Positions 8,927 through 9,243 of a stretch of DNA of 64,000 nt are shown piece after piece. The notes under the pieces were generated by a model that was not told the DNA's origin, searched no databases, and saw nothing but the letters and a program-made list of their open reading frames with translations. Positions within the stretch are counted from its first letter, which is position 1, and each line of letters begins with the position of its first letter. The DNA is taken from assembly GCA_963677485.1 (NCBI GenBank), contig OY781964.1:2571288-2635287 (forward strand), written 5' to 3'. The translations under genes and the position numbers were made by a program. Source of the stretch: Armatimonadota bacterium. Lineage in GTDB: Bacteria; Armatimonadota; HRBIN16.

Positions 8927-9243
8927 GTATAGGTGACTGTAACTACTCAGCCATCAGATGAGTCTGCCGTGTGTCTGTTCAGGATGGGCGCAACCCATCA
9001 CGCACCAGACCTTCCGTGCACCCACGAAGTGGGTAGGATTCTTATAGCCAGGGGTGAGCGAAGCGATACCCCTGGAAAGTGGCGCATCATACTTACCCCG
9101 AAGTGGGTCGCACCTATTCGCGGTAGCCGTTCTATCAAGTCACCGAAGACGACCCACTTCGGGGGTGCCGGAAGCTGCAGCATCATAAGCGACCATGGAC
9201 TGATGCACGATCATCGCCAATGGCTGAGTAGTTACAGGTGACT
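8927..9243. repeat. TIR-bounded structured repeat (family C) containing nested hairpins
   Basis: Terminal inverted repeats of about 18 bp: tgtaactactcagccat at 8931-8950 and atggctgagtagttaca at 9225-9243. The interior cccacgaagtgggta...ccccgaagtgggtcg...gacccacttcggggg is hairpin-rich. A second copy of the core lies at 36317-36535. Confidence 0.5.

Follow-up and report, generated by a model that had tools for sequence, protein, structure and literature searches.

The 64,000-nucleotide stretch analyzed here (the window; positions 2,571,288 to 2,635,287 of contig OY781964.1 from an Armatimonadota bacterium, assembly GCA_963677485.1) contains two copies of a hairpin-rich element, copy 1 at 8939-9235 and copy 2 at 36317-36535. 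We consider it highly probable that this element is a repeat of the repetitive extragenic palindrome (REP) type, whose inverted doublets form a population resembling REPINs (REP doublets forming hairpins) and are tied to a Y1 transposase of subclass 1.2. The original prediction had proposed either a third family of miniature inverted-repeat transposable elements (MITEs) or a structured small RNA, and had taken the location of the copies, directly 5' of a recQ-like gene and of an array of M48-like paralogs, as a hint of a regulatory or transcribed role. Its description of the DNA itself proved accurate, since both copies sit at the coordinates it gave and share a core, and the nested stems ACCCAC-GAA-GTGGGT and CCAGGGGT...ACCCCTGG were confirmed. 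The kind of element is ordinary, namely, selfish extragenic palindromes; what is noteworthy is the three-hairpin arm, the TAGCC foot, and the association with a protein subclass thought to be REP-less.

The window belongs to a 5.19-Mb chromosome (ena:ERZ21831265:ctg82166l; locus L091 is 100% identical to the window). A 19-mer from the core, TTATAGCCASGGGTGAGCG, was searched in public genomes and matched at least 88 blocks of 8 kb, nearly all of them in OW818647.1, the 5.3-Mb chromosome of a congener that is 82 to 88% identical to the window over a syntenic stretch. A second strain, GCA_054606775.1 (locus L092), is ~96% identical to the window genome. The census of repeat units covers the 675 kb of loci picked with the 19-mer and thereby samples ~13% of the congener genome.

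Within the window, the 28-nt core of the central hairpin, CCAGGGGTGAGCGAAGCGATACCCCTGG, occurs exactly twice (9048-9075 and 36352-36379), and none of 100 shuffled sequences produced a match. Over 104 nt, the unit in copy 1 shares 89.4% identity with the left arm of copy 2, and a hidden Markov model (HMM) of the unit retrieved three units, at 9012-9119 (+), 36318-36422 (+), and 36536-36432 (-). The claim that copy 2 is an imperfect palindrome almost from end to end (TCCGG...CCGGA) was borne out. As single-stranded DNA (ssDNA), this copy folds into one long hairpin of -77.4 kcal/mol, against -34.7 ± 3.8 kcal/mol for shuffled sequences (z = -11.1).

The unit is ~105 nt long. An alignment of 135 units (A4), which is the basis of the counts on its anatomy and of the covariance model used below, resolves it into hairpin 1 (HP1), ACCCAC-GAA-GTGGGT; a linker, GATTC-TT; an ATAG foot; hairpin 2 (HP2); ~20 variable nt; and hairpin 3 (HP3), TACCCC-GAA-GTGGGT. 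In HP2, a stem of 8 bp leads through a GA/GA internal loop, in which a single T is bulged out, to an apical GCGAAGC mini-hairpin. Stem positions are paired in 98.2% of all cells of the alignment (HP1, 99.0%; the two helices of HP2, 99.6% and 99.3%; HP3, 94.6%), and at pair 47-69 of HP2, 74 units have C-G and 60 have G-C, the one remaining unit being an exception. The HP1 loop is G-N-A in 125 and the HP2 apex GCG-N(N)-AGC in 131 of the 135 units. The apex matches the motif GCGNAGC/GCGNNAGC, called mini-hairpin DNA in PMC13037366; GNRA-like apex variants, GAAA and GCAA, are also present. The internal loop of HP2 covaries as well (A4 columns 52-53/62-64; window positions 9056-9057/9065-9067): a 5' GA is accompanied by a 3' GAT, GTA, or GAA (59, 23, and 8 units, respectively) and a 5' AA by a 3' GCA (37 units), which could reflect sheared G.A pairs in tandem or, alternatively, a shifted register that yields a GCG/CGC stem of 3 bp.

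Two arm types can be distinguished, and 47 of 56 dimers join a G-type with a C-type arm. These heterotypic dimers keep their local hairpins, and the pairing from arm to arm is imperfect. A comparable pairing of two types has been described for the Y and Z REPs in the bacterial interspersed mosaic elements (BIMEs) of Escherichia coli (PMC6006769). Copy 2 is such a dimer. Its left arm (36318-36422, +; nhmmer E = 7.1e-29) consists of HP1 at 36323-36337, a G-type HP2 at 36352-36379, and HP3 at 36398-36411, and its right arm (36432-36536, -; nhmmer E = 2e-20; alignment A1) of HP3 at 36436-36452, a C-type HP2 with a GAAA apex at 36472-36500, and HP1 at 36513-36530. It lies between two co-directional genes without a shell of terminal inverted repeats (TIRs) or target-site duplications (TSDs), and its flanks resemble those of other copies over at most 12 nt. 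A search for the orthologous site in relatives returned the same genome only.

The claim that the core belongs to a repeat family was confirmed. The nhmmer search of the sampled congener loci retrieved 178 units, of which at least 160 are full-length. All 77 adjacent pairs are convergent (+,-), with gaps of mostly 20 to 30 nt, so that the real repeat is an imperfect palindrome of ~240 nt; a further 24 units are solo. Only 2.5% of the element bases fall within long open reading frames (ORFs; at least 200 aa), compared with a background of 79%. The location of the two window copies 5' of genes is explained by this extragenic tolerance. Dimers occur in three contexts, namely, bare, inside a first MITE family (to which copy 1 belongs), and inside a second. 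At least 12 bare dimers, copy 2 among them, have flanks that agree with those of other copies over no more than 15 nt and lack TIR and TSD alike; no TSD is visible at bare dimers, their flanks are weakly palindromic for another ~20 nt, and their exact ends cannot be fixed without empty sites. MITE family 2 (TIR CAGTCTATTACCCACA; ~365 bp; TSDs of ~10 bp) is absent from the window and is found in OW818647.1 at L038 (2321-2734), L047, L062, L051, L075, L080, L056, and L001. Its copies are 92 to 98% identical, which makes the family look recently active. Some have an extra solo right TIR ~60 nt downstream, as well as longer nested TIRs, GCCGCGACAT..ATGTCAGTCTATTACCCACA. Because the core recurs within two unrelated TIR shells, it is a module independent of both.

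The same unit frames genes for Y1 transposases. At congener locus L030, a unit (+) at 4853-4947 precedes, and a unit (-) at 5505-5411 follows, a gene at 4964-5407 that encodes a 147-aa Y1 transposase of the HUH type; an AGGAGG site lies just past HP3, and the inverted arm begins directly after the stop codon. Two loci of the window genome have the same arrangement (L089, unit [+] 2889-2986, gene 3001-3444, unit [-] 3596-3490; L090, unit [+] 2888-2985, gene 3001-3444, unit [-] 3539-3445), as does L087 from a metagenome-assembled genome (MAG) of the Beijerinckiaceae, where a unit (+) precedes and a unit (-) follows the gene. The feature of a REPtron, a Y1 gene framed by inverted repeat units, is thus present at four loci. 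The paralogs of the window genome, P0002 and P0003, lie ~2.2 and 1.5 Mb from the window; they share 82% and 60% identity, respectively, with the L030 protein, and 54% between them. All sampled congener loci together hold a single copy of the gene. No near-identical duplicates are on record, each window-genome paralog being recorded once per assembly, and no tnpB was found beside the genes, whose neighbors are unrelated (LicD, transketolase, and Rrf2). The L087 homolog is 31% identical; its arms have a nearly identical HP2, TTATAGCCACGGGTGAGCGCAGCGAACCCGTGG, and different HP1 and HP3 hairpins. A near-identical foot and HP2 were also observed, as at L087, at loci L003, L018, L021, L027, L058, L059, L070, and L085 of MAG CALZAF01. 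In these unrelated MAGs, foot and HP2 read TTATAGCC-AGGGGTGAGCGAAGCGTAACCCCT-GG, with a compensated arm TTATAGCC-GTGGGTGAGCGTTAGCGTAACCCAC-GG, and HP1 and HP3 are entirely different. Foot and HP2 are far more conserved at the DNA level than the 31%-identical protein, a conservation for which the 19-mer search selects.

The association extends to more distant homologs. A protein-alignment scan of metagenomes yielded 598 relatives, from which 80 loci were kept, 61 of them extending 200 nt or more to either side of the gene. Inverted flank repeats that hug the gene (score of at least 40) were detected at 40 of these 61 loci and at 2 of 61 in a cross-locus control. The covariance model built from A4 identified 61 modules in the metagenomic loci, usually (+) just upstream and (-) just downstream of the gene. 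In the cross-lineage alignment A5, 97.5% of the cells are paired; shuffling lowers this figure to 72% and sliding to 53% or less. The pairing is inflated by the fit of A5 to the covariance model. Both partners have changed in 19 of the 21 pairs, with 240 compensatory cells. The TAGCC foot is near-invariant (T in 46, A in 54, G in 50, C in 52, and C in 44 of 56), and the HP1 loops are mostly GNA (GAA in 16, GGA in 12, GTA in 7, and GCA in 3 of 56). A strict regular expression for the Armatimonadota HP2 had no match in the flanks of the 80 loci, and the shared architecture is visible only by the sequence-free inverted-repeat test and the covariance model. Several modules accompany some of the metagenomic genes: at L126 (1362-2676), L120 (46-2068), and L147 (1-1005), three to six modules lie beside the gene or are dispersed over the 3.4-kb locus, a REPtron-like picture outside the Armatimonadota.

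The L030 protein matches the Pfam family Y1_Tnp (PF01797; E = 5.8e-22) and passes the IS200/IS605 model NF033573 (57.8 bits; cutoff, 55). Its AlphaFold model has a predicted local distance difference test (pLDDT) score of 88.1, and every one of its 30 PDB matches at E ≤ 0.001 is a Y1 transposase. These Foldseek matches include IS608 (2vjv; E = 4.5e-8), ISDra2, and IS200 (2f4f), with 2vjv, 2xm3, and 2f4f at ~1e-7. Compared with the E. coli TnpA-REP structure 4er8, the model gives a template modeling (TM) score of 0.64 and a root mean square deviation of 2.7 Å. Residues H55, H57, W92, Y112, Q116, H119, and H120 are invariant in alignments A3 and A7; Q93 is fully conserved in A3 and almost fully in A7. 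The Y1 proteins are 147 to 150 aa long and have the motifs HuH, WQ, and Y-x3-Q-x2-HH and a conserved C-terminal TFQEE..FL....YDERYVW; in the Armatimonadota proteins, the first residue of the HuH context is N, not D. In the published classification (PMC6006769), subclass 1.2 of TnpA-Y1 has a median length of 148 aa, the motifs DH[IV]H, WQ, and Y-x3-Q-x2-HH, a specific C-terminal tail of ~30 aa, and a low copy number; it is found mostly in Cyanobacteria and Bacteroidetes, is proximal to IS200, and carries the entry "REP: no." Judged from these published motifs and not from the HMMs of the authors, our proteins appear to fit this subclass, as do their apparently low copy number and diverged paralogs. 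The genes studied here differ from that description in being flanked by inverted three-hairpin modules, which are amplified to hundreds in the Armatimonadota.

On this basis we put forward, as a tentative proposal with somewhat less than even prospects, that subclass 1.2 proteins are the center of a widespread and undescribed REPtron/REPIN-type system. It would have a conserved three-hairpin, TAG-footed ssDNA partner, composed of GNA and GCGN(N)AGC mini-hairpins, whose architecture is kept across many soil and freshwater lineages while its stems turn over, with hundreds of ~240-nt dimers in the Armatimonadota that hitch-hike in at least two MITE families. A literature search found no later description of such a system, which is not proof that none exists, and a search with the literal string GGGTGAGCGAAGCG returned nothing relevant. 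Atypical REPtron-like systems are already known, so the present one is not a new kind: class 3 and subclass 2.6 of TnpA-Y1 are associated with atypical secondary structures, e.g., ~600 copies in Solibacter usitatus (PMC6006769). These share with our loci REPtron-like flanks without GT[AG]G, high genomic copy number, and occurrence outside the Proteobacteria, but they differ in their proteins (class 3, W[TA], YV..EQ, and 178 aa; subclass 2.6, YIH[QN]NP) and, for class 3, in a CnGA foot. A Y1 subclass described as REP-less would be linked to a conserved and more elaborate ssDNA module, with a bearing on the transition from IS200-like to REP/RAYT systems (RAYT, REP-associated tyrosine transposase).

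The likeness to the REP, BIME, and REPIN elements and the RAYTs of E. coli and Pseudomonas fluorescens is manifold. (i) The repeats are extragenic, occur in high copy number, and form inverted doublets that fold into one hairpin. (ii) There are two heterotypic arm types, resembling Y and Z, and a short conserved foot lies 5' of the hairpin that is presumably recognized. (iii) An HUH/Y1 gene of apparently low copy number has inverted units on both sides, with more than one paralog per genome. (iv) The predicted fold superposes on TnpA-REP 4er8. There are differences as well: a REP has one hairpin of 20 to 40 nt, whereas the arm described here has three in ~105 nt, and the dimer measures ~240 nt instead of ~100; the foot is (A/T)TAG-CC instead of GT[AG]G; the protein has the Y-x3-Q-x2-HH motif of subclass 1.2, whereas RAYTs belong to class 2 with Y-x3-NP; and the hosts are Armatimonadota and diverse metagenomic lineages, whereas REP/RAYT systems are found in Proteobacteria.

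IS608 TnpA and TnpA-REP of E. coli, with the structures 2vjv and 4er8, serve as models for a possible mechanism. Two convergent inverted arms flank either the 147-aa Y1 gene, as a REPtron-like master locus, or a spacer of 20 to 30 nt, as in the abundant dimer. The dimer may have arisen from the gene locus by internal deletion, as suggested by its geometry, which is that of the gene locus with a short spacer in place of the gene. The arms would fold on one ssDNA strand at the replication fork; a Y1 dimer would bind HP2, an irregular hairpin that has a bulged T, a GA/GA loop, and a capping mini-hairpin; and the bases of the foot would position cleavage, upon which the ssDNA would be cut and rejoined. 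In this way, dimers could be copied or moved to new extragenic sites without target duplication. The GNA and GCGNAGC loops, which are of a type seen in ssDNA, lend indirect support to ssDNA recognition. The covarying mini-hairpins and the TAGCC foot would offer a ready substrate for studying how an HUH enzyme reads ssDNA.

Several observations weigh against the assignment to a REP/REPIN-type system. With respect to the protein, the curated RAYT model NF047646 gives 25 bits at a cutoff of 80, the class 2 motif Y-x3-NP is absent, and only RAYT groups 2 and 3 have been described as associated with REPINs (bioRxiv 2021.07.10.451892; PMC5581495). With respect to the DNA, the canonical REP, which PMC6006769 and PMC3733652 describe as a single palindrome of 20 to 40 nt with a 5' GT[AG]G foot, has no counterpart here, the foot being ATAG in the genus and NTAG across lineages; the arms are 3 to 5 times as long as a classical REP, and the dimers are more than twice as long as typical REPINs of ~100 bp with a palindrome of ~14 bp (bioRxiv 2021.07.10.451892). 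About one third of the metagenomic homolog loci have no clear inverted flanks, and the pairing in A5 is inflated as stated above. The copy number of the Y1 gene rests on protein-cluster records, and coverage amounts to ~13% of the congener genome and, for the window genome, to four loci in addition to the window. Mobilization of the dimers by the Y1 protein, like its binding to and cleavage of HP2, is inferred from the gene association. Finally, copy 1 and its ~22 to 30 relatives have spread, as their TIRs and TSDs indicate, as a MITE, and MITE family 2 carries the dimer as well; such MITE-borne spread implies that some of the copies have arisen independently of the Y1 protein.

An exapted host function, in mRNA 3'-end stabilization or termination, in the binding of a nucleoid protein or gyrase, or in the handling of ssDNA during replication, might exist besides or instead of selfish spread, as has been proposed for the REPs and BIMEs of E. 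coli; we regard this as unlikely, although such roles are documented for classical REPs (PMC3733652 and PMC3479197). Units were found in 26 convergent, 37 co-directional, and 13 divergent gaps, and a crude, ORF-based estimate for the sampled loci places them in 26 of 59 convergent but 37 of 197 co-directional gaps, an enrichment in the convergent ones; these gap statistics are biased, however, because the loci were chosen for containing the element. The near-complete pairing of the stems in 135 units would likewise suit a host function, but recent copying or recognition by the transposase explains the preservation of the hairpins equally well.

It is distinctly unlikely that the system is an autonomous insertion sequence (IS) of the IS200 type, in which arm, tnpA, and arm transpose as a unit and the dimers are internally deleted copies comparable to palindrome-associated transposable elements (PATEs). 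The protein passes the IS200/IS605 model and fails the RAYT model, subclass 1.2 adjoins IS200 in the published classification (PMC6006769), and the geometry of the dimer equals that of the gene locus minus the gene. Similarities to IS200/IS605 elements such as IS608 and ISDra2 also include the Y1 HUH fold, no target duplication at bare dimers, and, by analogy, what may be recognition of irregular subterminal ssDNA hairpins in which one base bulges out and beside which guide or cleavage bases lie. The gene, however, appears to be in low copy and is diverged, with no near-identical copies on record, and it is vastly outnumbered by the nonautonomous form; for IS200 (subclass 1.1), the mean is 4.8 copies at 99% identity (PMC6006769, Table 1). 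Moreover, the ends form inverted repeats, whereas in IS200/IS605 the left end differs from the right, and there is no adjacent tnpB.

An ordinary MITE family mobilized by a DDE transposase, with the core as its interior and an incidental adjacency to Y1 genes, would find support in copy 1. This copy is a 297-bp member of MITE family 1 (8939-9235), bounded by 16-bp TIRs, GTAACTACTCAGCCAT at 8939-8954 and ATGGCTGAGTAGTTAC at 9220-9235, and by a perfect 8-bp TSD, AGGTGACT, read at 8931-8938 and 9236-9243. The prediction of an 18-bp TIR was correct in that 8937-8954 and 9220-9237 are 100% complementary; the true TIR has 16 bp, because the outer bases belong to the TSD and happen to extend the complementarity. 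The sampled sequences, window included, contain 23 TIR pairs of this family with a usual length of 373 to 375 bp, ~22 TIR-bounded relatives being in the congener loci, and 8-bp TSDs were read at L017 (CCCTTCGG), L015 (CCCTTACA), and L034 (GAACGATA). The shell of copy 1 is thus a MITE by its TIR, TSD, length, noncoding nature, and multiple copies, and the third MITE family of the original prediction holds for this outer shell; the core is instead a REP-like arm of the kind that flanks the Y1 genes. IS66 inverted repeats begin with GTAAGCG and generate 8-bp direct repeats (PMC11946415). The inverted repeat of the shell, starting with GTAA, its 8-bp TSD, noncoding nature, length of 297 to 375 bp, and tens of copies are compatible with an IS66-derived MITE and hint at a possible IS66-type origin. 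The shell differs from IS66 in its TIR, GTAACTAC..., and from TIR/TSD MITEs in that its interior is a captured REPIN-like dimer, not a remnant of IS ends. The second MITE family, with its own TIR and closely similar copies, carries this dimer as well. Set against this are the at least 12 dimers without common flanks, TIR, or TSD; the presence of one core in two unrelated TIR families; its position 0 to 30 nt from the start and stop codons of four Y1 genes, a plan that recurs with other stems at 40 of 61 distant loci; and the failure to find, in the sampled DNA, a convincing full-length parent IS with the GTAACTACTCAGCCAT TIR. A plain MITE is accordingly a quite improbable explanation of the family as a whole.

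Under the preferred REP/REPIN-type reading, copy 1 would be a dimer that was spread by the transposase of the TIR/TSD MITE and then lost most of its right arm. It is not a single unit but consists of an intact arm and the stub of a second one. The left arm (9012-9119, +; nhmmer E = 3.5e-32; row 1 of A4) contains HP1, ACCCAC-GAA-GTGGGT, with a 6-bp stem and a GNA triloop, at 9020-9034; the ATAG foot and HP2, CCAGGGGT-GA-GC(GAA)GC-GAT-ACCCCTGG, at 9044-9075; and HP3, TACCCC-GAA-GTGGGT, an HP1-like direct repeat of HP1 at a spacing of 74 nt, at 9094-9108. The right-arm stub, CGACCCACTTCGGGG|GTGCCGG, at 9150-9171 (-) consists of fused reverse-complemented HP3 and HP1 sequences (alignment A6; inverted repeats). 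Comparison with five full-length relatives of 373 to 375 bp (A6) shows a clean 76-nt deletion that removed HP2 and whose endpoints are the direct repeats ACCCACTTCG(G/T)GGGT, i.e., reverse-complemented HP3 and HP1, between which recombination may have occurred. The collapsed copy is also present in the 96%-identical strain (L092). A 102-aa ORF (8933-9241, +) spans the MITE almost exactly; relatives differ by the 76-nt indel and by other indels, so that this ORF is, on its sequence, a repeat artifact open to miscalling as a gene. Palindromes of ~240 nt may confound assembly, gene calling, as in this spurious ORF, and screens for RNA motifs in Armatimonadota, and REPIN-like dimers inside DDE-type MITEs would represent a second route of spread for such repeats.

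The other reading of the original prediction, a structured small RNA or cis-regulatory RNA acting on the downstream recQ-like helicase and paralog array, has almost nothing left to recommend it: hairpins that are very well conserved and covary, GNRA-like apex variants, and the location of both copies upstream of same-strand genes are what such an RNA would show, but the element exists in at least 160 units beside unrelated genes, unlike a gene-specific regulator, with TSDs on its MITE form; the palindromic dimer occurs in all intergenic orientations; stem mismatches within the family (9 G.T versus 12 A.C) reveal no strand bias; scans for promoter-like sites were negative, and terminator-like sites do not exceed their frequency in shuffled sequence; no Rfam family is matched even at E ≤ 10; and the copy 1 site is absent from relatives at 82 to 89% nucleotide identity. 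The pattern that the original prediction had itself named as refuting an RNA, numerous copies in the genome with TSDs and without conservation of one strand, was thus observed. Across lineages, mismatches amount to 33 G.T versus 4 A.C, a bias that is untrustworthy because the covariance model chooses the strand. The Rfam 15 scan gave no match in the window at gathering thresholds, and the permissive matches of both copies are chance matches, the best of them (mir-920, STnc310, and snoZ163) scoring 13.7 to 14.9 bits against cutoffs of 39 to 70. Among further candidates, integron attC sites, group II intron domains, self-cleaving ribozymes, retron multicopy single-stranded DNA, and CRISPR were rejected, since no matching genes, arrays, or Rfam matches were found. 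The window thereby loses a candidate regulatory RNA, both copies being, in all likelihood, selfish repeats, and nothing about function follows from their location beside recQ and the paralog array.

The neighborhood of copy 1 varies among relatives, and its site is not conserved beyond the 96%-identical strain. In two relatives of 82 to 85% identity (L178 and L179), the DUF302 gene directly adjoins the URO-D gene, which marks window positions 5410-9260 as an insertion of ~3.85 kb; the congener (L177) has a different neighbor at this site and no MITE. No clean empty site for copy 1 was found among the relatives examined, because they lack the whole recQ/dprA segment. This segment (5410-9260) holds a dprA-like gene (5478-6752, -), a recQ-like or DpdF-like helicase gene (7004-8881, -), and the MITE; from its gene content, the helicase/DprA pair looks like an accessory, possibly mobile or defense, module with the MITE at its edge. 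Downstream of copy 2, five consecutive ORFs (36705-43540) encode proteins of 322, 316, 431, 526, and 501 aa. None of the five had a Pfam match and the first three had no NCBIfam match either, and the label of an M48-like paralog array was left unconfirmed by these scans.

The window contains other short dispersed repeats, at 13471-13553, 15773-15939, 17514-17619, 19864-20105, 20209-20338, 24041-24397, 27715-27825, 30608-30663, and 33750-33801. They belong to other families, common to many congener loci at 78 to 95% identity, and are probably families A and B of the original prediction. Positions 24009-24295 are 92% identical to L090 817-1104, elsewhere in the window genome, which is unusually rich in small repeats. 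The intergenic spacer at 27766-27848 is polymorphic with respect to congener locus L081 (1598-1862): the congener has a solo REP-like unit (L081 1664-1767), whereas the window sequence is unrelated and includes an isolated TIR-like motif, ATACCTGAGTAGTTAC (27831-27846), similar to the end of MITE family 1.

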